Assembly: GCA_025060595.1 (NCBI GenBank)
Contig: JANXBX010000001.1
Coordinates: 20,459-84,458 of the forward strand
Source of the DNA: Synergistota bacterium
GTDB lineage: Bacteria > Synergistota > GBS-1
Reading direction: 5' to 3'
DNA length: 64,000 nt
Shown: positions 10,544 through 57,126 of the stretch, piece by piece
Layout of the letters: the number at the start of each line of letters is the position of its first letter
Position numbering within the stretch: position 1 is the stretch's first letter
The notes under the pieces: model-generated
Told to the model about the DNA's origin: nothing
The model's database searches: none
What the model saw: only the letters and a program-made list of their open reading frames with translations
Position numbers and translations under genes: made by a program

Positions 10544-11500
10544 CTAAGCATAAACATCCTCAAGAGCCTCTTCAGGCTCAGGATAGGGGCTATTTTCCGC
10601 AAACCTCACGGCTTCTTCAACTTCCCTAGCTATCATCTCCTCTATATCTCTTATCTTAGCTTCACTCAATATCCCCGCTTTAATAAGCCTCTCTTGAAAA
10701 CGCCTTATTGGACATTTTTTCTTCCATTCCTCTATTTCGTCTTGTGTTCTATAAGTTTGAGGATCCCCCTCAAAGTGTCCCCTCCAACGAGCTGTTTTAG
10801 CCTCTATCAATGTCGGACCCCCACCAGAGCGAGCTTTATTCACTGCCTCCTTAACTGCTTCGTAGACAGCTATAACATCGTTCCCATCTATAACAATCCC
10901 AGGCATACCGTAAGCCGAAGCTCTATCTGCCACATCATCGATCGCCATCCCCTTTCGCTGAGGCATCGATATGCCATACATATTATTCTCGCATAGAAAT
11001 ATAACAGGTAGCTTCCATATAGAGGCCATGTTTAAGCTTTCATGGAAAGTACCTCTATTTGATGCACCATCGCTAAAGAAACATAAAGCAACTCTTCCGT
11101 TCTTTTGTAAATAACTTGATAAGGCTGCACCCGTTGCTATTGGCAAACCAGCACCAACTATCCCATTAGCTCCGAGTATGCCCAGATCTACATCAGCTAT
11201 ATGCATAGATCCTCCTTTACCCTTACAATAGCCGGTCTTTTTACCGTAAAGCTCAGCCATCATATATTTAAGATCTCCGCCTTTAGCTATTAGATGCCCA
11301 TGTCCTCTGTGAGTACTAGTTATATAATCAGTGGGTTCTAAAGCTGAGCAAGCCCCAACAGCTACTGCCTCTTCACCTATGTAAGAGTGAACAAAACCCG
11401 GTATCTTACCTTGAGCAAAAAGCTCCACAACTTTTTCTTCGAACCGTCTTATCCTTAACATAGAAATATACATGTTAATCCACAGTTTTTCCTCACCCAA
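10544..11500 (-). CDS. TPP-dependent 2-oxoacid/acetoin dehydrogenase E1 component alpha subunit
   Basis: TPP-binding region GKGGSMH..GIVGAGLPIATGAA..SDGASNRGTFHESLN. Confidence 0.9.
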   Translation of the reverse strand: MGEEKLWINMYISMLRIRRFEEKVVELFAQGKIPGFVHSYIGEEAVAVGACSALEPTDYITSTHRGHGHLIAKGGDLKYMMAELYGKKTGYCKGKGGSMHIADVDLGILGANGIVGAGLPIATGAALSSYLQKNGRVALCFFSDGASNRGTFHESLNMASIWKLPVIFLCENNMYGISMPQRKGMAIDDVADRASAYGMPGIVIDGNDVIAVYEAVKEAVNKARSGGGPTLIEAKTARWRGHFEGDPQTYRTQDEIEEWKKKCPIRRFQERLIKAGILSEAKIRDIEEMIAREVEEAVRFAENSPYPEPEEALEDVYA

Positions 11501-43562: not shown

Positions 43563-44065
43563 AACGACTCACCCTTTATCGCGTAATAAACATTACGAAT
43601 GAAAAAAGCAACCCCTTGAAGGAAAAACAATAAAAAGCCTATAAAGATTATTGTCCTTAAAGGATAAAGTGGAGGATAAACATATGTGGTTGCTGATGTT
43701 TCTTTAATAGAGATTGAGAAAACCATCCAAGAATAAGAAGAGGTAACCATCGTACCTATTAAAGGAAAGAAAAGAAAGATAGAACCTATAGCATCTATTA
43801 ACGCTCTCCCCCGAGGGGATAAACGAGCGTAGAGGATGTCAACACGAGTATGAGCATTCCGAAGAAGCACATAGCCCCATGATAAAACATACATGGCTGC
43901 TCCTGACATAATTATAAGCTCATACTCCCATGCAGTAGACTGATGAAGAAGGTATCTTCGAATGACACCTATAACTCCTATTAAAACTAAAACCGCAGCT
44001 AACCACCCAACTTGCATTCCTATCTTCTCATTAACAAGATCGATGAATTTAAGAATGCTTCTCAA
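43559..44065 (-). CDS. TRAP small permease DctQ (second system)
   Basis: 168 aa, 4 TM; gene order here is Q-M-P. Confidence 0.7.
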   Translation of the reverse strand: MRSILKFIDLVNEKIGMQVGWLAAVLVLIGVIGVIRRYLLHQSTAWEYELIIMSGAAMYVLSWGYVLLRNAHTRVDILYARLSPRGRALIDAIGSIFLFFPLIGTMVTSSYSWMVFSISIKETSATTYVYPPLYPLRTIIFIGFLLFFLQGVAFFIRNVYYAIKGESL

Positions 44066-44150
44066 ACAGAACCACCCCCTTTTTATACCCTAACCCCCAT
44101 ATCAAGCTGAACAAAAACCTTCACTTATACTAAAACCCAGTACACTATTC

Positions 44151-44180
44151 ATTATACACCTATGAAAATTATAGCGTCAA
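44151..44180 (-). promoter_or_regulatory. Sigma70-type promoter (TTGACG-18-TGTATAAT) for the dctQMP operon
   Basis: Minus-strand TTGACG at 44180-44175 and extended -10 TGTATAAT at 44158-44151. About 80-nt leader to the dctQ ATG, with AGGGGGGTGG Shine-Dalgarno. Confidence 0.45.
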
Positions 44181-44603
44181 GGTACAAATCCCCTTGATAC
44201 AAAAACTTTTTAAACACTAAATATCAGGATTACCACTAAAGCTTCTTCTAACATAATACCTAAAAAATTAATTCAGCATACCTATACAGGAGAATCTTGT
44301 CCCCATCTTTAATCCAGGGGGCAAAGGCGAGTGCCAAATTTATAAGAGCAGAGTAAAGAATATAGAAAACAAGATGGTGGTTGTCGACATTACTACACAT
44401 GAGATCCTAAGATACTTAAACCTGTAATAATTGATTCTGAAATACAGCTTTATGAAGATAAAGAAATGAATAACTATAGCAAGAGAAGCTCAGCGAATTT
44501 TTAATAAGTCAAAAAGAAGCTGTCAAAAGCTCAATAAAAAGAAGTTAAGAGAGGAACAACTAAAGAAATGGTGAAAATAAAGAAAGAGGGAAAGAACCAA
44601 GCA

Positions 44604-46046
44604 TTAACGCCTGTAAGTTTCAGGAAGGAATATAAGCAATATAGCGTAAAGCTCAAGTCTTCCAGCTACCATACAGAAGCTTAATAACCACTTAGCAAAC
44701 GGATTAAAGAAAGCGTAGTTTTCGGCAGGACCAACCCTTCCTAGACCAGGTCCAATATTTCCTAAGGTAGCTGCAACTGAAGCTATAGAGGTGATTAGGT
44801 CATATCCCATAGCAGCTATTACCAAAGACGATACAATAAAAACTAACATATAAATCATAAAAAAGCTTAAAACAGAATCAACCATGTTAGAGTGAAGCGG
44901 TTTACCATTTAACTTAATAGATATAACAGCTTCAGGATGAACTAACCTATAAAGCTCTTTCTTAAAAACCTTAAGCAAGATTAAAATTCTAACGTGTTTC
45001 ATGGCTCCTCCTGTAGATCCAGCGCACCCACCGACAAACATTAAAATCAAGAGAAGATACTGAACAAAGGGAGGCCATGATGAATAATCTGTAGTAACAT
45101 AACCTGTAGTCGTTAGGATAGAAACTATCTGAAAAGAGGCATAGCGAATAGAGTCTCCTATATTACTATAAGTTCCACTTAAATACAAAAACACCGTAGC
45201 AAAGACTACACCAACTAACACAAAACCTACATAAAACCTAAACTCATCGTCTTTAATAAACCCCTTTAGATCTCCCTTTAACGCGCGATAATGAAGAGCA
45301 AAGTTGGCTCCTGCTATGAACATAAAAGCTGTTATAACTATTTCAAAGTAAAGATTATTATAATAACCTATACTTTTATTAAAGGGTGAAAAACCACCTG
45401 TTGCAACAGTTCCAAAGGTGTGACACAAAGCCTCATATAAGTTCATACCACCCACATAAAGCAAGATGGTTTCAGCTGCCGAAACTATGAAATAAACTTC
45501 CCAAAGTATCTTTGCAGTCTCTCTAACACGAGGTTTTATCTTTTCCGCCACAGGACCCGGAACCTCAGCCTTAAAAAGGTGCATACCACCAACACCAAGA
45601 GCCGGAAGAATAGCAAGAGAAAGAACTATTATTCCCATACCACCAAGCCAATGAGTAAAATCTCTCCAAAAAAGTATCCCCTTGGGGAGAACTTCTATAT
45701 CTTTAAGTATACTTGCTCCTGTAGTAGTAAAACCCGACATAGACTCAAAAAAACAATCAACGTACTGCTCAAAAAATCCACTGAAGTAATAGGGAAGCGC
45801 CCCTAAAGCAGCACAACCCAACCACCCAAAGGCAACAACCCCAAAACCTTCCTTTGGAGTAAACTCCTCTCCTTTCTCCCCAAGAAGTATTAAAGAGCTA
45901 CCTGAAGCTATAGATACAAGAATAGCTTTAATAAAAGGAAAAGCACTTTCATTAAAATAATACGACCAAGCCATAGAAGGGATCATTGATAAACCTAAAA
46001 AGAGGAAAAGCCAGCCTACTGGATATGAAACAACTCTGAACCGCAA
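44604..46046 (-). CDS. trkH: Trk/Ktr-type K+ transporter membrane subunit
   Basis: 480 aa with repeated M1-P-M2 units (GFTTTGAS, TTTGY, LGNIGPGLG selectivity-filter glycines). Confidence 0.85.
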   Translation of the reverse strand: MRFRVVSYPVGWLFLFLGLSMIPSMAWSYYFNESAFPFIKAILVSIASGSSLILLGEKGEEFTPKEGFGVVAFGWLGCAALGALPYYFSGFFEQYVDCFFESMSGFTTTGASILKDIEVLPKGILFWRDFTHWLGGMGIIVLSLAILPALGVGGMHLFKAEVPGPVAEKIKPRVRETAKILWEVYFIVSAAETILLYVGGMNLYEALCHTFGTVATGGFSPFNKSIGYYNNLYFEIVITAFMFIAGANFALHYRALKGDLKGFIKDDEFRFYVGFVLVGVVFATVFLYLSGTYSNIGDSIRYASFQIVSILTTTGYVTTDYSSWPPFVQYLLLILMFVGGCAGSTGGAMKHVRILILLKVFKKELYRLVHPEAVISIKLNGKPLHSNMVDSVLSFFMIYMLVFIVSSLVIAAMGYDLITSIASVAATLGNIGPGLGRVGPAENYAFFNPFAKWLLSFCMVAGRLELYAILLIFLPETYRR

Positions 46047-46048
46047 CT

Positions 46049-47407
46049 TTAAGATTCTCCCCTTTCAGAAAACCACTCTGGAATTTCCTTAATCATTTCG
46101 CCCATCAAGAAAACCACAGCTTCATCTCCCTCTTCAAGTTTCGTTTCGCCTCGAGGAATTATAACATCCTCCCCTCTAACGATAGCTCCCACAAGAAAAC
46201 CCTCAGGTAACGGAAGATCACGCAATCTACCTTCCGTGATTCTCGCACCCTTACCAACTTTAACATCTACAACTCTAGCATTAGCTTCCTCAACCAGAGC
46301 AATCGATAAAATATCCTCTCGCCAAACATGCTTAAGTATACTACTTGCCGTAGCAAGTCTCGGGTTAACTATTGCATCGATCTTCTCAAGATAATCTACA
46401 AGCTTAACATAATCAGACTTTTTAACTAAAGCTATTCCCTTTTTGGCACCCTGGCTTTTTGCGAGAAGAACGGAAAGAAGATTCACTTCATCATTTTGAG
46501 TCAAAGAAACAAAACCATCTACTTCAGAAACTCCTTCTTTTTTAAGAAGAGCTAAATCCGTTCCATCTCCCTGAATTACCAAACTGGAAGAAAGACTATC
46601 TGCAAGCATACCACATCTTTCAGCACTCTTACTTATTACTTTCAAACCAGAAAAGCCATGCTCCTCTAACATCTTAGCAAGCCAATAAGTCGTTTCCCCT
46701 CCCCCAATAAGCATTATTTTCTTAGGCTTTTTCCACTCAGCCCCTAAATAGATGGAAAGCTTATAAAGATCCTCTCTCTTCCCTACTACAAAAACTTTAT
46801 CTCCAGCTTCTATTTTATTTCTACCATGCGGGATAAAAGCTCCACCACCACGTATAATACCTACTACTAAGAAAGTGCCATCAATCTCTTTAGATATCTC
46901 AACTAAGCTTTTCCCTAATGCAGGAGCATCACTTGAAACCCTAAGTAAATATACTACAACCCTACCAGAAGCAAACTCCATAACCTGAGATGCTGGAGGA
47001 ACCTGAAGCAGGTGAAATATCTCAGAGGCGACCACCCTTGTAGGGTTAATAATTAAATCTATACCTATTCTTTGAGCAACCATTCCTGTAGGTTCATCAT
47101 ACTCCAAAGTTTGAACTCTTGCTACAACTCTCTTAACGCCGAGCTGTTTAGCTATAAGGCAAGCTACGATGTTAGTTTCATCACTATCTGTAACGGCTAT
47201 AAGCATGTCAGACTCGCTAACTCCTGCTTCTTCAAGAACGGAAAGTTGGGAACCACTTCCTTGTATAGCAAGTACATCAAGTCTTTCTTGAATATCGGAG
47301 ATCCTTTTCTCATCTTTGTCTATAACCACAACATCATGTCCCTCATTGGAAAGAACCTTTGCAAGATTAAAGCCTACTTCTCCAGCACCCACAACTATAA
47401 CCCTCAT
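46049..47407 (-). CDS. trkA: TrkA K+-uptake regulatory protein (two RCK_N plus RCK_C repeats)
   Basis: Rossmann motifs VVGAGEVG and MLIGGGETTY. Confidence 0.85.
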   Translation of the reverse strand: MRVIVVGAGEVGFNLAKVLSNEGHDVVVIDKDEKRISDIQERLDVLAIQGSGSQLSVLEEAGVSESDMLIAVTDSDETNIVACLIAKQLGVKRVVARVQTLEYDEPTGMVAQRIGIDLIINPTRVVASEIFHLLQVPPASQVMEFASGRVVVYLLRVSSDAPALGKSLVEISKEIDGTFLVVGIIRGGGAFIPHGRNKIEAGDKVFVVGKREDLYKLSIYLGAEWKKPKKIMLIGGGETTYWLAKMLEEHGFSGLKVISKSAERCGMLADSLSSSLVIQGDGTDLALLKKEGVSEVDGFVSLTQNDEVNLLSVLLAKSQGAKKGIALVKKSDYVKLVDYLEKIDAIVNPRLATASSILKHVWREDILSIALVEEANARVVDVKVGKGARITEGRLRDLPLPEGFLVGAIVRGEDVIIPRGETKLEEGDEAVVFLMGEMIKEIPEWFSERGES

Positions 47408-48718
47408 CTAACGCCCCTCCTCATCTAAAGAAATAATAAGTTGAGCAAGCCTTAAGCCAATACTATCAACGAGCAATGGATCTTTCCCTTCAACCATAAT
47501 TCTAATGAGAGGCTCCGTTCCAGAGGGCCTTAAAACGACACGCAGACTCTTTTTCCAGCTTTCCGAAATCCTATTTAACTCCTCTTGAAGCAAAGCTGAT
47601 GAAATAATGCTGTTTTTATCTTTAACCCTTATATTCCAAATTCTTTGTGGGTAACGGGGAAAACTATCTATATAATGTTCAAGGCTCTCACCGAAGGTTA
47701 GTATCTTTATTGCTGTAACCATACCGTCACCCGTACAAACTTCAGGTCTAAAGATTACATGGCCTGAAGGCTCTCCTCCTAAAGGCAAATCCCTTTTTTT
47801 CACCTCTTCATAAACCCACCTATCTCCTACAGGAACCCTTATAAAGCCTATTTTCATGGAAGACAACACTTCCTCTAGTCCAAGGTTGCTCATTACCGTT
47901 CCAACCACAGCACTAGGCTTAAGTTTTGAAGCTGCAAGATAAAGAATCACATCCCCATCAGCTATCATACCTCGTGAATCAGAAAGCATAACCCTATCTC
48001 CATCACCATCGAAAGCAAAACCCAGATAAGCTTCTTCTCTCGCCACTGCCGATACCATCTCACCTGTAGAGGTAGATCCCACTCCAGCATTTATATTTAT
48101 TCCATCAGGTTCACAACCTACTTTTATAACCTCAGCACCAAGGTTTTCAAATACTAAGGGAGCTATCTCAAATAAAGCACCATTAGCAGCATCAACTACA
48201 ACTTTTAAGCCATCAAGTTTAAGACCCTTGGCTACTTTAAGAAGAAAAGGAACATAGTATTCCTTTGGATCTACCTTATAGAGCTTGCCCAAATATATCC
48301 CTGTTGGCAACCCCCAATCTTTTTCAAGCATCCTTTCTATCATTAATTCTGACTCAGGAGACAATTTCTCTCCAAACGAATTAAAAAACTTCACCCCATT
48401 ATACTCATAAGGATTGTGTGAGGCAGAAACTACTGCTCCGCCATCAGCTTTAAGCTCCCTAACTAAGAAAGAAATTCCTGGTGTAGATAAGATTCCAACA
48501 TCGATTACATCACAACCAGATGAAAGAAATCCTGCTATTAACGCAGAGATAAGAGCATAGCCACTTAAGCGAGTATCCTTACCAACTACCACTATAGGTT
48601 TCTCTTTACTCTCCTTAAGCAAAAAACCATAAGCTCTAGCTACTTTTAAAACCACCTCTGGCTTCATGTTTCCCGAGTTAGCTATATCTCTAATTCCATC
48701 AGTTCCAAAAAGCTCCAT
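47408..48718 (-). CDS. glmM: Phosphoglucosamine mutase
   Basis: Phosphoserine loop SASHNPYEYNGVK. Confidence 0.9.
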   Translation of the reverse strand: MELFGTDGIRDIANSGNMKPEVVLKVARAYGFLLKESKEKPIVVVGKDTRLSGYALISALIAGFLSSGCDVIDVGILSTPGISFLVRELKADGGAVVSASHNPYEYNGVKFFNSFGEKLSPESELMIERMLEKDWGLPTGIYLGKLYKVDPKEYYVPFLLKVAKGLKLDGLKVVVDAANGALFEIAPLVFENLGAEVIKVGCEPDGININAGVGSTSTGEMVSAVAREEAYLGFAFDGDGDRVMLSDSRGMIADGDVILYLAASKLKPSAVVGTVMSNLGLEEVLSSMKIGFIRVPVGDRWVYEEVKKRDLPLGGEPSGHVIFRPEVCTGDGMVTAIKILTFGESLEHYIDSFPRYPQRIWNIRVKDKNSIISSALLQEELNRISESWKKSLRVVLRPSGTEPLIRIMVEGKDPLLVDSIGLRLAQLIISLDEEGR

Positions 48719-48721
48719 ATT

Positions 48722-49951
48722 TCATCCTCCTTCCTTAACGATTGAAACTTTTACCATTTCAGGAGTAACAGAAATCACTTCTAAACCAGGAGGTAGGGAA
48801 ATAGATACCGGAAGAGTGGCTTCCTTAACATCCACACCCGAAACATCTACTAGAACTAAAATATCCTGAATATTAAGAGACATTATCTTAGTGTACGGAC
48901 CTTTAACCTTAACTTTAACATGATTAGGAGATACTCTCCACTTCAAAAAGACGCTGCTACCATGAATTCTAACAGGAAGAAAATACTCCCTCTCCAAAAC
49001 TCTTTCCTTAAGCTCCACTATTACTCTAATATTAGGTTTTTCAACGAACTTTAACTCTGCAGGGGCAGAAAGAGTCATATCAAAAATCTCTGTCTTACTA
49101 AGCTCGGAAACATCTAGCGGCGGCGTCACTATCTCATTTATCTTATCTAATGCAGAAGATGGTCCCATTACAGTAATATGAGATGGAATCGCTTCAACAG
49201 AAACGATTTCAAAAGCTTCATTGGGCTTCCCCTTTATATCTACTTTAACCTTGACTATCTTAGTTGGCCACCCAGGTTTTAAAGAAACAGAAGCTCTAAC
49301 TCTAGATGGTATTATCATAAGCTCAGATAAAGAATTTTCAGAAACTCCTTCCGCTCTTAGCTCTAAAACAGCATCGATATTTCCCACAGCCCCACCAATA
49401 TTCAAGGTAGCAAAAACGTAAGGCACCTTCTCCACCACATCCTTAGGACCTCTAATGATCACGCTGTTAGGAACCGCTTTCACCTCATTAACCAAAAAAC
49501 CTTCAGCAGGATTTCCCACCGTTAAAACTCTTACAGGAACCTCTCGATCTATAAGCTCCCTTATGGACACCACTAAAAAGGGGGGTTTAATCCTAACTAC
49601 ATGAACTCCAGGAGGAACAAGAGCCTGAACTTGAAGCCTATATATACCTGGATTCAAGCCCTGAAGATCCACAAAGGCTTCAAGATCTCTTGATGTTAAT
49701 CCTCCCAAAACATTTTTACCCCCCTTTAAGTTAAGCTCGACGCTTTTGGTTTCATACTCTACTAAGATCTTCTCAGGGGGATTCTTGACCTTTACAGGAA
49801 CTTCAATTATTCTCTCCACAACTTGTGGCCCCTCAATCCACACCGTATAGTACCAAAATATTATAGAAATCATTAAAGAAACTATTAATAAAAAAAGCTT
49901 ACTTTCAAGGATATTCCATATGCCCCTCAACTCTATTCCCCCTTCAACCAA
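48722..49951 (-). CDS. cdaR: YbbR-domain protein CdaR (regulator of CdaA)
   Basis: N-terminal TM helix plus repeated YbbR-like beta domains; positioned between cdaA and glmM. Confidence 0.75.
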   Translation of the reverse strand: MVEGGIELRGIWNILESKLFLLIVSLMISIIFWYYTVWIEGPQVVERIIEVPVKVKNPPEKILVEYETKSVELNLKGGKNVLGGLTSRDLEAFVDLQGLNPGIYRLQVQALVPPGVHVVRIKPPFLVVSIRELIDREVPVRVLTVGNPAEGFLVNEVKAVPNSVIIRGPKDVVEKVPYVFATLNIGGAVGNIDAVLELRAEGVSENSLSELMIIPSRVRASVSLKPGWPTKIVKVKVDIKGKPNEAFEIVSVEAIPSHITVMGPSSALDKINEIVTPPLDVSELSKTEIFDMTLSAPAELKFVEKPNIRVIVELKERVLEREYFLPVRIHGSSVFLKWRVSPNHVKVKVKGPYTKIMSLNIQDILVLVDVSGVDVKEATLPVSISLPPGLEVISVTPEMVKVSIVKEGG

Positions 49952-50721
49952 GACAAAAGCCTATCTTTAAAGTTCTCTCTTTGTTTAGTGAAATAGTATC
50001 TTTCAAGAAGCCTTCTTATAGCCTCCTCATTAAGATTCGTTACCAATCTACCATTAACTGCAAAAGAAACTTCTCCCCTTTCCTCTGAAACCACTAAAAC
50101 CCAAGCATCTGTAACCTCACTTAGCCCTAATGCAGCCCTATGTCTTGTACCAAACCGTCTATCTATCTCTCTATCAGACAGCGGGAAAAAACAACTTGCA
50201 GCTAAAATTTTATCCTCCCTAATTACAACAGCACCATCATGAAGCGGACTTCTAGGATTAAAGATCGAAAGAATAAGCTCAGCAGATATCTCTGCACCTA
50301 ATTTGACACCCTTATCCCAAAAATCCTTTAAGCTGCTCTTCCTCTCGAAAGCAATTATAGCACCTATTTTACTCTCTCTAAGAGAAGTTATAGCAATAAA
50401 AAGCTCACTAACGATCTGAGCTCCTCTCCTGGGAGAAACCCCTTTACTCTCCCAAAAACCCCCTCCCAGCCCTTCAAGACCTCTTCTAAGCTCCGGTTGA
50501 AAAACTATAGGTATGACTATAAAAGACAAACTTATGACTCTTTCAAGAAAGTAACTTATAGCCTGAAGCCCCATAAATTTTGCTAATCCATTCAAGAGAA
50601 GAATCAAAAGAAGCCCTTTAACAAGTTGAAATGCTCGCGTTCCTCTCAAAAAGAGCAAAACCCTATAAACAACATAAGCTATTATTAAAATGTCCGCAAT
50701 ATCCTGCCACCTAAGAGGCAT
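49933..50721 (-). CDS. cdaA: Diadenylate cyclase CdaA (DAC domain)
   Basis: DAC motifs GAIIAFER, LHDGAVVI and GTRHRAA; three N-terminal TM helices. Confidence 0.9.
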   Translation of the reverse strand: MPLRWQDIADILIIAYVVYRVLLFLRGTRAFQLVKGLLLILLLNGLAKFMGLQAISYFLERVISLSFIVIPIVFQPELRRGLEGLGGGFWESKGVSPRRGAQIVSELFIAITSLRESKIGAIIAFERKSSLKDFWDKGVKLGAEISAELILSIFNPRSPLHDGAVVIREDKILAASCFFPLSDREIDRRFGTRHRAALGLSEVTDAWVLVVSEERGEVSFAVNGRLVTNLNEEAIRRLLERYYFTKQRENFKDRLLSWLKGE

Positions 50722-52204
50722 TCCTCCCCACCTTTCCCTCTATCTCCTCAAGAGCTTTATGCGCCTCCTCATCCGTTGGATATACCTTAAGAACCTTTAA
50801 CCACTCTACTTCCGCTTCCCTAAACATTCCTCTTCTCATATACCCTCTTGCTAAGAGCCTATGTGCTTCCACATGCTCAGGCTTAAACTTCAAATCCGCC
50901 TTAGATATGGAAATCTCTTGCCTTGAAATTTTATCGATCGCTTCGAGAGCTTCCTTATCCTCCGGATCGATATCCAAAATGTTCCTCCAGCAAGAAACCG
51001 CATCCTCAAATCTCCCCTGCCTATGGTAAAGCTTTGCAAGCTGCCTTAAGATATCCACATTCCTAGGCTCCTTATGTGACAACTCCTCAAGAATAGCCAG
51101 TGCCTTACCAGGCTCCCCTATCTTTATATAACTCATGGAAAGCAAAAGAGAAATTTCTCTATCACTAAAACCCCCTTTTATTGCATCCTCAAAAACATTC
51201 GTAGCATTCTTAAACCTTTCCACGAACATATAACTTTTACCGAGAAGATAGTAAAGATCTCTACTTTTAAACTCCTTACTTTTTGCTTTTTCAAGAAATT
51301 CTATAGCCTTGTCATAATCCCCCACTCTATAATAATGCCCCCCTATAAGATAATAAACCTCACCATTCTCTATTCCAAGTTTCAAAGCTTTCTCCGCCTC
51401 TTGTAAAACCATCTCCCACGCATCTTCCTTAGCGTAAGCCCAAGCCATCTTAAGATGAATATCTCCCCTTTCTGGGAAGATCTCGGCAGCCTTTCTCCAT
51501 GACATTAAGGCTTTAACCCAAAGTTCCTTAGAAGCATAAGAATCTCCCAAGAAAATATAAGCATTAACATCTTGAGGGTTCAATTTTATTACTTCTTTCC
51601 AGATGTCTATAGCTCTGGAATAAAAGCCTCTTTCCATACAAAGCAAAGCTAGATTAACCTTAGCACCATAATGATTAGGATTCACCTTAACTGCCTCCTC
51701 TAATTTTTCCATAGCCTCATCTATCAACCCTTGCTTTAGAAAGACAACAGCAAGATCATTGTAAGCATCTGCATTATAAGGATTAACCTTTATAACCTTC
51801 CTATAGCAATTCACAGCCTCATCAAGTCTTCCTATTTCATCATATACGTAGCCCATATTCCACCAAGCTCTATCAAAATTAGGATTTAATTCCACAGCTT
51901 TCTTAAACTCCCTAAGCGCTTCCTCCACCCTCCCAAGCTTAAAAAGAATCTCCCCTAAGAGATTCCTCGCCTCTACGTAATAAGGATCTATAAAAACGGC
52001 CTTTTCGATCTCCCTTTTTGCCTCTTCCACATTCCCAATGTTTAACAAAGCTAATCCCAGCTTATATCTATACTCACTATTCTTAGGATCCATGCGAATA
52101 AGGGTTTTACCTATAGATATGGCTTTACTCCATTCCCCCCTATCTACAAGCTCCCTAAACTCCTTTTCTAAAACTTCCTTTTCTTCCAAACGTTCTCCCC
52201 CCAT
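50711..52204 (-). CDS. Tetratricopeptide-repeat protein
   Basis: About 13 TPR units (W-LG-Y-A-F-P-type spacing); overlaps the cdaA start by 11 nt. Confidence 0.75.
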   Translation of the reverse strand: MGGERLEEKEVLEKEFRELVDRGEWSKAISIGKTLIRMDPKNSEYRYKLGLALLNIGNVEEAKREIEKAVFIDPYYVEARNLLGEILFKLGRVEEALREFKKAVELNPNFDRAWWNMGYVYDEIGRLDEAVNCYRKVIKVNPYNADAYNDLAVVFLKQGLIDEAMEKLEEAVKVNPNHYGAKVNLALLCMERGFYSRAIDIWKEVIKLNPQDVNAYIFLGDSYASKELWVKALMSWRKAAEIFPERGDIHLKMAWAYAKEDAWEMVLQEAEKALKLGIENGEVYYLIGGHYYRVGDYDKAIEFLEKAKSKEFKSRDLYYLLGKSYMFVERFKNATNVFEDAIKGGFSDREISLLLSMSYIKIGEPGKALAILEELSHKEPRNVDILRQLAKLYHRQGRFEDAVSCWRNILDIDPEDKEALEAIDKISRQEISISKADLKFKPEHVEAHRLLARGYMRRGMFREAEVEWLKVLKVYPTDEEAHKALEEIEGKVGRNAS

Positions 52205-52260
52205 GAAAGTTAAGCTTGCTGTGGGAGTCGCTTATAAACCCCCACAGCTTTAACTATCCC

Positions 52261-53871
52261 CTATTGCTTTAATAACTCATCGCTAGGCTTAAATTCAACA
52301 TCAAGGCTCTTTAAATCGGTTGGCTTACCTAATACTCTAACTACAAGAATAAGCATTCCAAATATCATTAAAAGAGAAATCCCAGGATTAAGCCCATAAC
52401 CCGCAGGTATATAACCAACCAGTGCAGCAACTACTGCCACAGTAATAGCATAAGGTAGCTGAGTATTAACATGATCCATATGATCACAAACTGAAGCCAT
52501 AGAGGACATTATGGTAGTATCAGATATAGGAGAACAGTGATCACCAAAAACAGCCCCTGTAAGCACAGCACCTATAGTTGGAATTAACGGAGCACCAAGA
52601 GCATTAGCTAAGGGAACAGCAAGAGGCATGAGAATTCCCATCGTCCCCCAAGACGTTCCAGTAGCAAAGGAAACAAAAAGCGCTACCACAAAGACAACCA
52701 ACGGAGCAAACTGAGGTAAAAGACGCCCTTTAGTTAGACCTATTATATATTCAGCTGTTTTCATGTCATCGCATACTCCTTTTATAGACCATGCAAGAGT
52801 TAGAATAATAAGAGCTATTATCAAGCTCTTTGCTCCTTCTACCCAGGCTTCGAAAGCTTGGGATAAGGTCAAAATTCTTTGAGAAATGGCCAGCAATATA
52901 GCAACAGCACTCGTAGTAAAGGAAGACCATAATAAGACAAGGGATGCATCCGCATTACCTATAGCATCACGAATTCCTGAAAAGGTAAAAGGTTTTTCAA
53001 GCCCTCCGCCATTATACCAAAGACCGACCAAAGTAACGATTATCATAGTTAAAATTGGAAGCCAAGCATTTATAGCCCTTATAGACTTTCCTTCAGGAAC
53101 ATAAAACTTGGCTAACTCAGGCGAAGCCAAAGGCTTAGCATCATCCCTCAAAAGCTTACCTGTGGTTCTAGCTCTAACTTCAGCTTGATACATAGGACCA
53201 TAATCCCTTTGAAGCAAGATTATTACGAGAACCATGAAAACAGCTCCTAAACAATAAAACCTATAAGGAATGCTCTTTAAAAAGATAAGATAAGCGTTCT
53301 CCTGAATCCCTACCTTCTCAAGAGCCTGCTGAATTAAACCCAATTCGTACCCTACCCATGTTGATATTATAGCCCAACTTGCTACAGGAGAAGAAGTAGA
53401 ATCAACTATATAAGAAAGCTTTTCTCTTGAAACCCTTAAGCTATCTGTTAAAGGTCTCATAGTATGCCCTACTAAAAGGGTATTTGCATAATCATCAAAA
53501 AATACTATCAGGCCCATAAGCCATGAAAAAAACTGAGCTCCTCTTGGAGTCTTAGCTCTCTTAGCTAAGCTTTGAGCTATCGCTAATGTTCCTCCGCTCC
53601 TACTCATTACACCAACTGCACCAGCTAAAGTCATAGAGAAAATCAATATTGACATGTTCCACGTCCCCCCATCCTTGGGGACAAGGGCTCTTAAAACGTA
53701 ACTATCAAAGGTAGAAAGGAAACCACTCCATGGGTTCCAACCAGCAAGAATTGTTGCTCCAATCCATATACCCATGAATAGGGAAAAAAGTACTTCCTTA
53801 GTCAAAAAGCAAAGTAAAATAGCCAAAACTGGGGGCAGTAGCGATAAAAAACCATATGGATGTACATCCAT
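52261..53871 (-). CDS. Na+/H+ antiporter NhaC family transporter
   Basis: 536 aa, about 12 TM, NhaC-type. Confidence 0.75.
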   Translation of the reverse strand: MDVHPYGFLSLLPPVLAILLCFLTKEVLFSLFMGIWIGATILAGWNPWSGFLSTFDSYVLRALVPKDGGTWNMSILIFSMTLAGAVGVMSRSGGTLAIAQSLAKRAKTPRGAQFFSWLMGLIVFFDDYANTLLVGHTMRPLTDSLRVSREKLSYIVDSTSSPVASWAIISTWVGYELGLIQQALEKVGIQENAYLIFLKSIPYRFYCLGAVFMVLVIILLQRDYGPMYQAEVRARTTGKLLRDDAKPLASPELAKFYVPEGKSIRAINAWLPILTMIIVTLVGLWYNGGGLEKPFTFSGIRDAIGNADASLVLLWSSFTTSAVAILLAISQRILTLSQAFEAWVEGAKSLIIALIILTLAWSIKGVCDDMKTAEYIIGLTKGRLLPQFAPLVVFVVALFVSFATGTSWGTMGILMPLAVPLANALGAPLIPTIGAVLTGAVFGDHCSPISDTTIMSSMASVCDHMDHVNTQLPYAITVAVVAALVGYIPAGYGLNPGISLLMIFGMLILVVRVLGKPTDLKSLDVEFKPSDELLKQ

Positions 53872-53895
53872 GTCTTATCTCCTCCTTTCAAAAAC

Positions 53896-54963
53896 TTAGT
53901 TTATAAAAACCTTACTCACATATGGAGATGTAGAAGCAAGAAGCATAGCTCCATAACTCAAGTTAAAGGTGAGAATGTCACCTACCTTTAAGGGGATAAG
54001 GCAATCGCTAACATCAAGAATAGTATGATCGCTTGATCCTCCTAGGACGTTAATACCTTCGAGCTGAGGGATTAACCCGTCAATATCCACATCTTGTCTA
54101 CCTAATGCCAATATAGCTTTCTTTCTCACCCCCTTATCCTCAAAGCAGGTTTTTTTCCCAAAAGCATCTTTTCCTCTCTCTCCTATTGGGAAAGAAGGTT
54201 TAAACTTGAGCTCTACTATTTCAGCTTTAAGTAAAAAAGTATCCTGTCTCAAGTAAGAAATCTCCCTATCCCTACTTGAGTCTTTGCCCAGAAGTATAGC
54301 CTCTCCTACCCTAAGTTGGTTTATCCCTTTTGGCATAACTCCTTTCTCTAGAAGATATAAACTAACGGTTCCTCCAACCGAAACTATAGGAATATCAAAT
54401 TTAGTATACTCTCGAGCTAAGGAAGCATAGTTTACTAACATAGATAAAGACTCCTCTGTAGGAAGAATGCCACTAAAACAACCGAAATTAGCTCCTATAC
54501 CCCAAAGCTCTACACTCTTAAGAGCTTTGAAAATATCTAAATAGGATAAAAGATTGGTTGGCCATATACCTTCCCTTAGATCTCCCATATCTATCATTAG
54601 AACCGCTCTAAACCTCTTTCCAAGCCCACCAGCTCTCTCATCCAAAGCCCTTATAACGCTTATATCACTAACCAAGGCTATATCAGCAAGCTCAACAACA
54701 TCCCTAATCTCCGAGAGCATAGGTATTCTTAAAAGCATAAGAGGGCAGGCTATTCCTGCCCTCCTAAGCTTCTTTACATTTTGAATCCTTGAATCTCCTA
54801 GCACTTTCACCCCAGCATCAAGAAAAGCAAAAGCTACTTCTGGAAGAGCAGAACATCCTTTAACAACACCAACAAGATCTACATCGCTCTTATTACAAAG
54901 CTCAAGAACCTTAGAGGCATTTTCTTTTATTCTTTCAAGATATATCTCCAAAGCGGGGTACAT
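53896..54963 (-). CDS. PLP-dependent amino-acid racemase-like protein (alanine-racemase N-terminal fold, COG3457-like)
   Basis: PLP-lysine context VVKGCSALPEVA..; 355 aa. Confidence 0.65.
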   Translation of the reverse strand: MYPALEIYLERIKENASKVLELCNKSDVDLVGVVKGCSALPEVAFAFLDAGVKVLGDSRIQNVKKLRRAGIACPLMLLRIPMLSEIRDVVELADIALVSDISVIRALDERAGGLGKRFRAVLMIDMGDLREGIWPTNLLSYLDIFKALKSVELWGIGANFGCFSGILPTEESLSMLVNYASLAREYTKFDIPIVSVGGTVSLYLLEKGVMPKGINQLRVGEAILLGKDSSRDREISYLRQDTFLLKAEIVELKFKPSFPIGERGKDAFGKKTCFEDKGVRKKAILALGRQDVDIDGLIPQLEGINVLGGSSDHTILDVSDCLIPLKVGDILTFNLSYGAMLLASTSPYVSKVFIN

Positions 54964-54965
54964 AA

Positions 54966-55904
54966 CTAAATCACTATCAACGCCAATATAGCCTTGTGAG
55001 CATGAAGCCTGTTCTCAGCCTCATCAAAAACCACAGAAAGCGGTCCATCTATAACATCATCAGTTATCTCTTCCCCTCTATGCGCAGGAAGACAATGCAT
55101 TACTATAACATCATCCTTAGCAAGAGAAACTAAAGCAGAATCTACCCTATATGGCTGAAAAAGCCTTACCCTTTCTTCCCTTTCAGATTCCTGCCCCATA
55201 CTTACCCAAACATCAGTATAAATTATATCCGCACCCCTAACTCCCTCTTTAGGATCGTTCACTATTTCTACCTTAGAGCCACTTCTTTTAGCAAACTGCT
55301 TTGCTCTCTCCAGTACATCCTCATCAGGGTAGTAGCCTTTAGGGGTACATATCGTTATATCCATACCCATTATGGTGGAGCCATAAAGAAGAGAGTGAGC
55401 CATGTTATTAGCCCCATCACCTACGTAAACCAATTTTAACCCTTCAAATCTCCCTTTCTTCTCCCAAATAGTTAAAAGATCTCCCAAAACTTGGGTTGGG
55501 TGACATTTGTCAGAAAGACCATTTATAACAGGAACTGAAGAGTACTTGGCAAGCTCCTCTACTGTAGAATGTGAGTAAACTCTTGCCATTATACAATCAA
55601 CATACCGTGAGAGAACCCTTGCCGTATCCGCTAGTGTTTCTCCCCTTCCAAGCTGAAGATCATTCTTACTTAAGTAAAGCGCATATCCTCCAAGTTGATA
55701 CATAGCTACTTCAAAAGAAACCCTTGTTCTCGTCGATGGCTTCTCAAAAATCATCGCAAGCGTTTTTCCAGCAAGAAGAGGTGGAAACTCTCCCCTTTTA
55801 GCCTTAAGTTTAAGATCTCTAGCGGTTTCAAGAAAGGTTTCTATCTCCTCTCTTGTAAAATCCGCAAGGGTCAAAAAATGCCTACCCTTTAGTTTACATA
55901 CCAT
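54966..55904 (-). CDS. argF: Ornithine carbamoyltransferase
   Basis: Motifs STRTR, HPTQ and HCLP. I place the start at MVCKLKGRHFL, with GGAGG Shine-Dalgarno about 10 nt upstream; the ORF-track start at 55931 is too far upstream. Confidence 0.85.
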   Translation of the reverse strand: MVCKLKGRHFLTLADFTREEIETFLETARDLKLKAKRGEFPPLLAGKTLAMIFEKPSTRTRVSFEVAMYQLGGYALYLSKNDLQLGRGETLADTARVLSRYVDCIMARVYSHSTVEELAKYSSVPVINGLSDKCHPTQVLGDLLTIWEKKGRFEGLKLVYVGDGANNMAHSLLYGSTIMGMDITICTPKGYYPDEDVLERAKQFAKRSGSKVEIVNDPKEGVRGADIIYTDVWVSMGQESEREERVRLFQPYRVDSALVSLAKDDVIVMHCLPAHRGEEITDDVIDGPLSVVFDEAENRLHAHKAILALIVI

Positions 55905-55920
55905 CTGTATAAAACCTCCT

Positions 55921-57126
55921 TCAGGCTCCATATTTCTTTAGCCTTAAAGCATTTGCTAGAACTAAAGGCATAAGGTCAACAGCGTTCATTACACCTAAGC
56001 TCCCTCTTAAGCATTCGGATTCCCCAAATTTAGAGACCTTGCTTGGCAAAACATAAGGAGACCATAGCAATACCGGCACTGGATGCCAGCTATGAGCTTT
56101 AAGCAAAGACGGGGTTGAATGGTCCCCAGTAATAACCAGAACATCAGGTTTAGCTTCAATTAAGATTGGTATAGCCTTATCCACTTTCTCTATCATTTCT
56201 ACCTTTTTATCGAAGGCTCCATCTTCGCCGTAAGAATCGGTTTTCTTTATATGAATATAGAAGAAATCATATTTATCCCGATTATCTTTTACTACTTTAA
56301 AGGCATCCTCAGGTTCCGGTCCTGCACTCAAGGAGCTCATACCAAGAAGCTGAGCTAAACCTCTGTACATAGGATAATAAGCTACCGAAGCACACCTTAG
56401 TCCATAAAGCTCCTCCATGCTTGGTATATCTGGTGGAAGAGAAAAACCCCTTAAAAGAATAGTATTAGCCGGAAACTCATCTTTTAAGACCTCCGTAGCC
56501 ATGTCTATAAACTTATTAACTATCTCTTCAGATCTTTTAGCTTCAGGAGATAGGGCTCTAGCCTTTTCAACAGGCAAACCATTTTTCTGAGGATCTGCGT
56601 CAGTGAGCTTATCAGAAAGATTTTCACCCCTAAAAACAATCGCAAACCTATGTTCCATACCTGGATAAAGAAAAACCTGAACCCCATCTATCTCCTTTAT
56701 CTTATCGGCAAGCTTGGCCGTTAGCTTCTGATTAACTTCTGTAGAAATTCTCCCAGCTCTCCTATCAGTTATAATACCATCTTTCAGAGTAGCGTAATTC
56801 CCTCTACAGGTTAAATCTCCCTTCCTAACATCAGCCCCAACTCCAAGCGTTTCTAATATCCCTCTACCGATGTCATATTTAAGAGGATCATAACCAAACA
56901 GAGCTAAGTGACCTGCTCCACTTCCAGGAGTTAAACCTGGAAAGATCGGATGAAGGAGTCCACAAGCCCCATCATAAGCAAGCTTATCCATGTTAGGAGT
57001 ATAAGCAGCTTCGAGCTCAGTCTTACCGTTCACTGGCAATCCCCCGATTCCATCCACTACCAAGAAGAATATCTTAGTGTTCGCATCCCTTATTACAAGA
57101 TCCCTTAATACAGACTCCCTGTCCAT
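55921..57126 (-). CDS. apgM: Archaeal-type cofactor-independent phosphoglycerate mutase family protein (ApgM family)
   Basis: Metalloenzyme/alkaline-phosphatase-like core (DGIGG..., ITGDHSTP). I place the start at MDRESV, with AAAGGAGGGGG Shine-Dalgarno 5 nt upstream. Confidence 0.75.
   Translation of the reverse strand: MDRESVLRDLVIRDANTKIFFLVVDGIGGLPVNGKTELEAAYTPNMDKLAYDGACGLLHPIFPGLTPGSGAGHLALFGYDPLKYDIGRGILETLGVGADVRKGDLTCRGNYATLKDGIITDRRAGRISTEVNQKLTAKLADKIKEIDGVQVFLYPGMEHRFAIVFRGENLSDKLTDADPQKNGLPVEKARALSPEAKRSEEIVNKFIDMATEVLKDEFPANTILLRGFSLPPDIPSMEELYGLRCASVAYYPMYRGLAQLLGMSSLSAGPEPEDAFKVVKDNRDKYDFFYIHIKKTDSYGEDGAFDKKVEMIEKVDKAIPILIEAKPDVLVITGDHSTPSLLKAHSWHPVPVLLWSPYVLPSKVSKFGESECLRGSLGVMNAVDLMPLVLANALRLKKYGA

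Follow-up and report, generated by a model that had tools for sequence, protein, structure and literature searches.

Whether a bacterium can carry in a single operon both the enzyme that makes the messenger cyclic di-AMP (c-di-AMP) and the K+ transporter on which this messenger acts is the question raised by a block of six genes in a 64,000-nucleotide (nt) stretch of contig JANXBX010000001.1, from a Synergistota bacterium (assembly GCA_025060595.1; the whole of this stretch is called the window hereafter). The block, TPR-cdaA-cdaR-glmM-trkA-trkH (TPR, tetratricopeptide repeat), consists of six open reading frames (ORFs), all on the minus strand, at 52204..44604. Our comparisons identify it as the widespread cdaA-cdaR-glmM module, extended in this one lineage and joined to TrkAH genes of the standard kind, and we favour, at somewhat better than even chances, a reading in which the block is a six-gene lineage-specific operon whose CdaA-made c-di-AMP acts on the co-encoded TrkAH. 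A sequence-only reading of the window had proposed six codirectional genes with these identities, and curated profiles and coordinates bore this out:

50711..52204, minus strand: TPR-repeat gene, 497 amino acids (aa) by the longest ORF (ATG 52204); Pfam TPR_2 (5.8e-63), TPR_1 and others
49933..50721, minus strand: cdaA, membrane-anchored diadenylate cyclase, 262 aa; TIGR00159, PF02457 DAC (1.4e-40), PF19293 CdaA_N
48722..49951, minus strand: cdaR/ybbR, CdaA regulator, 409 aa by the longest ORF (TTG 49951); PF07949 YbbR (1.6e-31, four stretches)
47408..48718, minus strand: glmM, phosphoglucosamine mutase, 436 aa; TIGR01455, four PGM_PMM domains
46049..47407, minus strand: trkA, tandem-RCK gating subunit, 452 aa; NF007039, PF02254 twice, PF02080 twice
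44604..46046, minus strand: trkH, K+ translocating membrane subunit with a TTG start, 480 aa; PF02386 (7.6e-77), TIGR00933

CdaA scored 234.1 bits against TIGR00159 (cutoff 188.8) and carries the DGA and RHR catalytic motifs, with H161-D162-G163 and T192-R193-H194-R195 invariant across the CdaA alignment. CdaR, encoded directly 3' of cdaA, has four YbbR repeats, and GlmM, encoded by the third gene of the cdaA-cdaR-glmM module, reached 458.9 bits against TIGR01455 (cutoff 447.55), its SASHNP active site being readable in the sequence. TrkA (470.7 bits against NF007039, cutoff 293) is built in the order RCK_N1-RCK_C1-RCK_N2-RCK_C2, with two stretches matching RCK_C (PF02080, 4.3e-22), and TrkH, whose gene adjoins trkA, scored 339.8 bits against TIGR00933 (cutoff 331.15). 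TPR matches cover most of the 497-aa TPR protein, in which no signal peptide or membrane helix was seen, as judged by eye only.

The TPR stop codon (TAG, 50713..50711) lies past the cdaA ATG at 50721, giving an overlap of 11 nt; the cdaR stop (TGA, 48724..48722) is separated by 3 nt from the glmM ATG at 48718, the glmM stop (TAG, 47410..47408) by 0 nt from the trkA ATG at 47407, and the trkA stop (TAA, 46051..46049) by 2 nt from the trkH TTG at 46046. The junctions given in the sequence-only reading for TPR/cdaA, glmM-trkA and trkA-trkH were thus read in the sequence exactly as claimed, and the ribosome-binding sites (RBSs) lie within the preceding gene of the block. The cdaA-cdaR junction is +2 nt with a start at TTG 49930 or -19 nt with the start at TTG 49951; the former, which yields a protein of 402 aa beginning 2 nt past the cdaA stop, is probably the real one, since the RBS AAGGGGGA stands in front of it and the layout is the same in the related locus L001, where the cdaR ORF begins just past the cdaA stop. 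Similarly, the TPR protein probably starts at TTG 52189 and not at ATG 52204, because GGGGGGAG precedes this codon and the position agrees with the start in the related locus L003 when the upstream regions are aligned.

We then compared these features across the clade to which the window belongs. The full six-gene block was intact in the relatives L001, L002/L003, L092 and L093, with TrkA 73-83% identical, and the TPR/cdaA overlap measured 11 nt in the window and in each of them. Over the same set the glmM-trkA junctions were 0, -4, +3, +1 and +5 nt, and the trkH start (TTGCGnTT), together with its RBS, was conserved in all five loci, 0-2 nt past the trkA stop. L092 kept the block intact although a further gene precedes its TPR gene and its downstream dctPQM/ilvD region is rearranged. 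The slot after trkH varied: in the relatives it holds one convergent gene or two, in the window only a non-coding stretch of 540 nt. Because the block, the 11-nt overlap and the glmM-trkA junctions of -4 to +5 nt recur in five related loci, we judge from this comparative evidence that the arrangement is more than chance.

Public gene calls of L002, L092 and L093 (~11362-11422) begin trkH at an internal ATG, giving 460 aa; in all clade members a conserved TTG with an RBS lies 60 nt upstream of the called ATG, 2 nt past trkA, which gives 480 aa. The extra gene of L092 (4830-5249) encodes a 139-aa bPH_7 (bacterial PH domain) protein and overlaps both the transporter gene and the TPR gene.

The host lineage is a deep, uncultured clade labelled Synergistota at NCBI. 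Entries identical to the TrkA and CdaA of the window stand in NCBI under the label "MAG: Synergistetes/Synergistota bacterium", and one partial TrkA of the clade belongs to an NCBI record named "bacterium 42_11". The TrkA clade falls into eight clusters at 90% identity, sharing 73-100% identity, and its next relatives reach at most 46%; the next CdaA relatives, at 47-53% identity, include those of the cultured Synergistota Jonquetella, Thermovirga, Acetomicrobium, Aminobacterium and Dethiosulfovibrio.

The six genes probably form one transcription unit, read as a single, translationally coupled mRNA, and the claim of a single unit made in the sequence-only reading is to this extent supported. 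At the glmM-trkA junction no terminator-like structure was found, the predicted RNA fold being at the level of shuffled sequences (z = +0.37), and an internal terminator at this point was rejected on the same ground. Scans of the region gave 27 promoter-like matches (22.5 expected from shuffled sequences) and 12 terminator-like matches (9.2 expected), without excess in either case. The sole promoter-like match near the junction, the sigma-70-like TTGGCT-16-TATTAT at 47460..47433, lies in the 3' end of glmM, just upstream of the trkA ATG, and might be taken to drive trkAH independently of cdaA, dividing the block into two transcription units. We regard this as very improbable: the match holds at only 9 of 12 positions in a region whose total equals the shuffled expectation, its hexamers are not conserved in L001, L003, L092 and L093, unlike the purine-rich RBS in the final glmM codons, and junctions ranging from a 4-nt overlap to a 5-nt gap favour translational coupling. 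An internal promoter in the glmM 3' end was rejected for the lack of conservation of the hexamers.

At its 5' side the block is preceded by a stable hairpin:

52208..52255, minus strand: stable hairpin, lying in the spacer that separates the TPR gene from the PF03553 transporter gene upstream; minimum free energy -24.9 kcal/mol, z = -3.13

This spacer likewise carries a hairpin in L001 (8474-8503, -26.7 kcal/mol, z -5.6), L003 (5146-5184, -30.7 kcal/mol, z -4.9) and L093 (5165-5190, -30.1 kcal/mol, z -3.4). The structure of the window is probably the 5' boundary of the six-gene unit, acting either as the terminator of the upstream unit or as a structure of the 5' untranslated region. In every clade member examined the spacer hairpins are GC-rich, with stems unrelated in sequence, so that the structure is kept and the sequence is not; T-rich tracts follow some of them and not others. 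As to regulatory RNA elements, no Rfam family reached its gathering score in the whole window, including the c-di-AMP riboswitch (ydaO/kimA class) sought in the leader of the transporter genes, and at E <= 1 a single chance match to a small nucleolar RNA appeared within 43900-54100. Neither in the operon nor around it did these scans find an Rfam element, a c-di-AMP riboswitch included, and the idea of such an element was rejected.

In the reading that we favour, CdaA would make c-di-AMP, and membrane-bound CdaR and cytosolic GlmM would modulate it, by analogy with Firmicutes. The messenger would bind the RCK_C domains of the TrkA ring, upon which TrkH would close. Higher expression of the operon would bring more K+ uptake capacity and, together with it, more of the enzyme making its brake; such a K+/turgor module would limit itself and would be linked to the supply of cell-wall precursors. 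For the TPR protein, which is predicted to be soluble and translationally coupled to CdaA, the simplest role would be that of an interaction partner of the cyclase complex; a role as sensory input would be pure inference from the strictly conserved 11-nt overlap with cdaA, its sole support. We hold more tentatively, as possible rather than probable, the idea of a self-contained K+/turgor homeostat in which the TPR partner and CdaR/GlmM set the activity of CdaA and c-di-AMP directly gates the tandem-RCK TrkA-TrkH system translated from the same mRNA. The "stoichiometric co-expression" of signal producer and effector that the sequence-only reading had drawn from the shared unit is not supported. 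Co-transcription leaves protein ratios unfixed, the conserved TTG start of trkH and the probable TTG start of cdaR may lower translation, and, since CdaA is an enzyme, how much signal is made does not follow from how much protein is present.

Several results weigh against c-di-AMP acting on the co-encoded TrkAH, and the first concerns how the linkage is distributed. Our comparison set consisted of 84 other cdaA loci, namely 80 metagenomic loci fetched with the CdaA alignment, which are the most similar CdaA matches (37-50% identity, distant phyla left out), and four from other Synergistota; 44 of the 84 reach at least 2.8 kb past glmM. TrkA, TrkH or PF03553 homologues were present in the flanks of none of the 84, even at E <= 1e-2, no trk gene adjoined glmM in any of the 44 longer loci, and none of the non-clade loci had a TPR homologue beside cdaA. 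The cdaA-cdaR-glmM core itself was present in all of the 84 with enough downstream sequence, and the four Synergistota loci read orr-like (ornithine-racemase-like)-cdaA-cdaR-glmM, followed in most by galU and glmS. Two more distant TrkA loci had no cdaA nearby, and a contig search with CdaA as single query returned one close relative only. Conservation of the cdaA-trk linkage, suggested for related genomes, was therefore confirmed in L001, L002/L003, L092 and L093 and absent from the 84 other loci, which rules out wider conservation within this sample; being missing even from the four other Synergistota, the linkage is not widely selected. Since it disappears outside the clade, the arrangement looks derived: from these gene orders, trkAH would have taken the place of galU-glmS behind glmM in this lineage, and the TPR gene and, before it, the transporter gene look to have been inserted between the orr-like gene and cdaA.

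A rival reading is an accidental adjacency, produced by rearrangement and without signalling meaning, in which trkAH landed behind glmM in place of galU-glmS and is simply read through, TrkA being gated by ATP/ADP and sensing no c-di-AMP. The restriction of the linkage to one clade and the galU-glmS order of most other Synergistota speak for it, as does the synteny of the clade, which is still high overall: a neighbourhood of ~20 kb is syntenic, so that conservation of the block is partly inherited, and its being kept within the clade argues only modestly for selection. Against it stand the junctions of -4 to +5 nt and the RBS in the glmM 3' end, which are kept in every member, and the persistence of the block through the local rearrangements of L092. 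Overall, we think accidental adjacency rather unlikely.

The gene beside which trkA actually lies is glmM, not cdaA, and this allows another explanation, that K+ uptake and turgor are coordinated with cell-envelope synthesis by the attachment of trkAH to peptidoglycan-precursor genes, cdaA only travelling with glmM. In a different Synergistota-labelled lineage (L004/L005), trkA begins 10 nt past murJ, the gene of the lipid II flippase. These are two examples only, no trk gene stood beside glmM in the 44 loci reaching far enough, and the explanation is compatible with c-di-AMP control as well; we consider it improbable as the cause of the arrangement. The murJ-trkA-trkH order (L004 8425-12784, L005 8094-12453) is in itself a second case of Trk genes joined to a gene of the peptidoglycan pathway.

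Two further points against c-di-AMP control through a shared operon arise at its 5' end. The promoter scan of the region did not locate the promoter of the six-gene unit, and the probable TPR start lies only ~25 nt past the hairpin, which would place the promoter upstream of the hairpin, maybe inside the upstream gene, or imply some read-through.

The nature of TrkA brings in the remaining objections. Among solved structures it comes closest to Vibrio TrkA (4g65 and 4j9u; E ~1e-75, residues 1-437), and tandem TrkA proteins of the Vibrio type are gated by ATP/ADP. Neither Vibrio nor E. coli, in both of which TrkA responds to ATP/ADP, is known to make c-di-AMP, and we know of no bacterial case in which c-di-AMP control of a Vibrio-type tandem TrkA has been shown. 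The Arg/Asn pair characteristic of KtrA-type proteins was not apparent in TrkA. Pointing the other way, RCK_C1 matches the c-di-AMP-binding RCK_C domains of BusR (7b5w, 1.4e-3) and CpaA (5f29, 2e-3), and RCK_C2 matches that of CpaA at 4e-3, the matches of the two domains to BusR and CpaA lying overall at E ~1e-3 to 5e-3. Known as a domain that binds c-di-AMP, RCK_C occurs in several K+ transporters regulated by this messenger (PMC8517857). Most published binders are KtrA, KtrC, CabP and TrkA proteins with a single RCK, among them the single-RCK TrkA of S. mitis (PMC12453120), and a two-RCK, TrkA-like protein of Haloferax volcanii, HVO_1058, which is cotranscribed with a TrkH-type subunit, also binds c-di-AMP (PMC12699388). 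Non-binding RCK_C proteins exist too (HVO_1885 and HVO_2211; PMC12699388).

At the level of residues, the c-di-AMP pocket of BusR (I153/G154/V158/A164/T165/I166/P181; PMC8517857) corresponds to L/V/K/F/L/V/G in RCK_C1, a loose match in which hydrophobic character is kept in part and no clear signature emerges; proven binders themselves show little conservation of this pocket (PMC12453120). Comparison of the clade TrkA with 111 outgroup sequences (119 TrkA sequences in total) likewise disclosed no telling gain of binding residues. Prediction of c-di-AMP binding from sequence was consequently dropped, as neither comparison gave a decisive signature, and the clade TrkA would be a c-di-AMP target only by analogy. 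Both the Vibrio-type tandem architecture and the pocket residues without clear conservation add to the case for an accidental adjacency with an ATP/ADP-gated TrkA.

In the same alignment, positions 240, 341-342, 378, 381, 422 and 436 of the clade TrkA carry invariant substitutions, which at most of them set the clade apart from over 80% of the 111 outgroup sequences. In the second Rossmann GxGxxG motif (GGGETT) the place of the third Gly is taken by T240, E341-K342 is a two-residue insertion in RCK_N2, and R378, D381, T422 and G436 of RCK_C2 differ from the outgroup.

On the upstream side of the block, the genes at 52261-55931 encode an ornithine carbamoyltransferase, an ornithine-racemase-like pyridoxal phosphate enzyme (406 bits against NF040742, under the cutoff of 480) and the PF03553 transporter, which has weak ArcD-like similarity. 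From these profile matches they look like an ornithine/arginine module and not like part of an ion-homeostasis system, and an orr-like gene lies directly upstream of cdaA in many other Synergistota loci. An "ion-homeostasis island" including an upstream NhaC-like gene was considered and dropped, since the gene in question is this weakly ArcD-like PF03553 member, placed behind the ornithine carbamoyltransferase and orr-like genes, and since the strong hairpin parts it from the TPR gene. On the downstream side, the stretch of 540 nt between trkH and dctQ (44066-44603) is non-coding in the window; the corresponding slot in L001, L002/L003, L092 and L093 holds a gene for a 285-aa KaiC-like ATPase convergent to trkH, with or without one for a protein of ~119 aa of the HTH_7 family. 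Within the window's stretch, an 18-aa segment at ~44415-44468 on the plus strand is 67% identical to the ATPase of L003 (E 0.003), which suggests that it may be a decayed remnant of a lost ATPase gene. A promoter-like TTGACG-18-TATAAT stands ahead of dctQ at 44180..44151.

What is known of K+ uptake control by c-di-AMP comes mostly from Firmicutes and their single-RCK KtrA-type proteins, and the operon described here supplies independent evidence, from gene neighbourhood, that such control may extend to the tandem form of TrkA and to a distant, uncultured phylum of diderm type. It places the maker of a signal beside the likely target of that signal; this is a lineage-specific variant and no new kind of system, and it extends the known biology of c-di-AMP and K+ without changing or challenging it. 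Our literature search met with no operon described as encoding a diadenylate cyclase along with the transporter it targets, and turned up nothing relevant to c-di-AMP in Synergistetes or to an operon of cdaA with trk genes. As a compact six-gene cassette the block lends itself to clean testing of c-di-AMP gating of a tandem TrkA in E. coli, and the conserved TPR-CdaA translational coupling nominates a possible new partner of the cyclase.

Among known systems, the closest to the first half of the block is the cdaA-cdaR(ybbR)-glmM operon of Firmicutes (Bacillus subtilis, Listeria, Staphylococcus), which has the same three genes in the same order and tight packing, with a CdaA made of an N-terminal membrane domain and a DAC domain bearing DGA/RHR, a CdaR of four YbbR repeats and an equivalog GlmM. 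Unlike that operon, the block has a TPR gene overlapping the cdaA start by 11 nt and trkA-trkH directly behind glmM, neither of which was seen in the loci compared from outside the clade. The second half resembles the c-di-AMP-gated KtrAB, KtrCD and CabP/TrkA-TrkH systems of Firmicutes, in which an RCK_N-RCK_C protein is likewise paired with a TrkH/KtrB-type subunit in an organism bearing CdaA, and, as in such systems, its RCK_C domains are detectably related to those of BusR and CpaA. The characterised binders are single-RCK proteins of ~220 aa forming octameric rings (PMC12453120), whereas the TrkA described here, a candidate binder, is a Vibrio-type tandem protein of 452 aa; moreover, those gated systems are encoded outside the cyclase operon. 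With the TrkAH of Vibrio (4g65, 4j9u) it shares the tandem architecture and the TrkH partner, and it departs from Vibrio TrkA in T240, the E341-K342 insertion and the RCK_C2 changes R378/D381/T422/G436. Haloferax volcanii provides precedents for the two ideas joined in this block: in HVO_1057/HVO_1058 a two-RCK protein that binds c-di-AMP by DRaCALA (an assay of ligand binding by differential radial capillary action) is cotranscribed with a TrkH-type subunit, and dacZ, the archaeal cyclase gene, is cotranscribed with the osmotic effector gene mscS2 (PMC12699388). Haloferax differs in being an archaeon, in having a cyclase of the DacZ and not the CdaA class, and in keeping its cyclase and Trk genes in separate operons, which the Synergistota block brings together.

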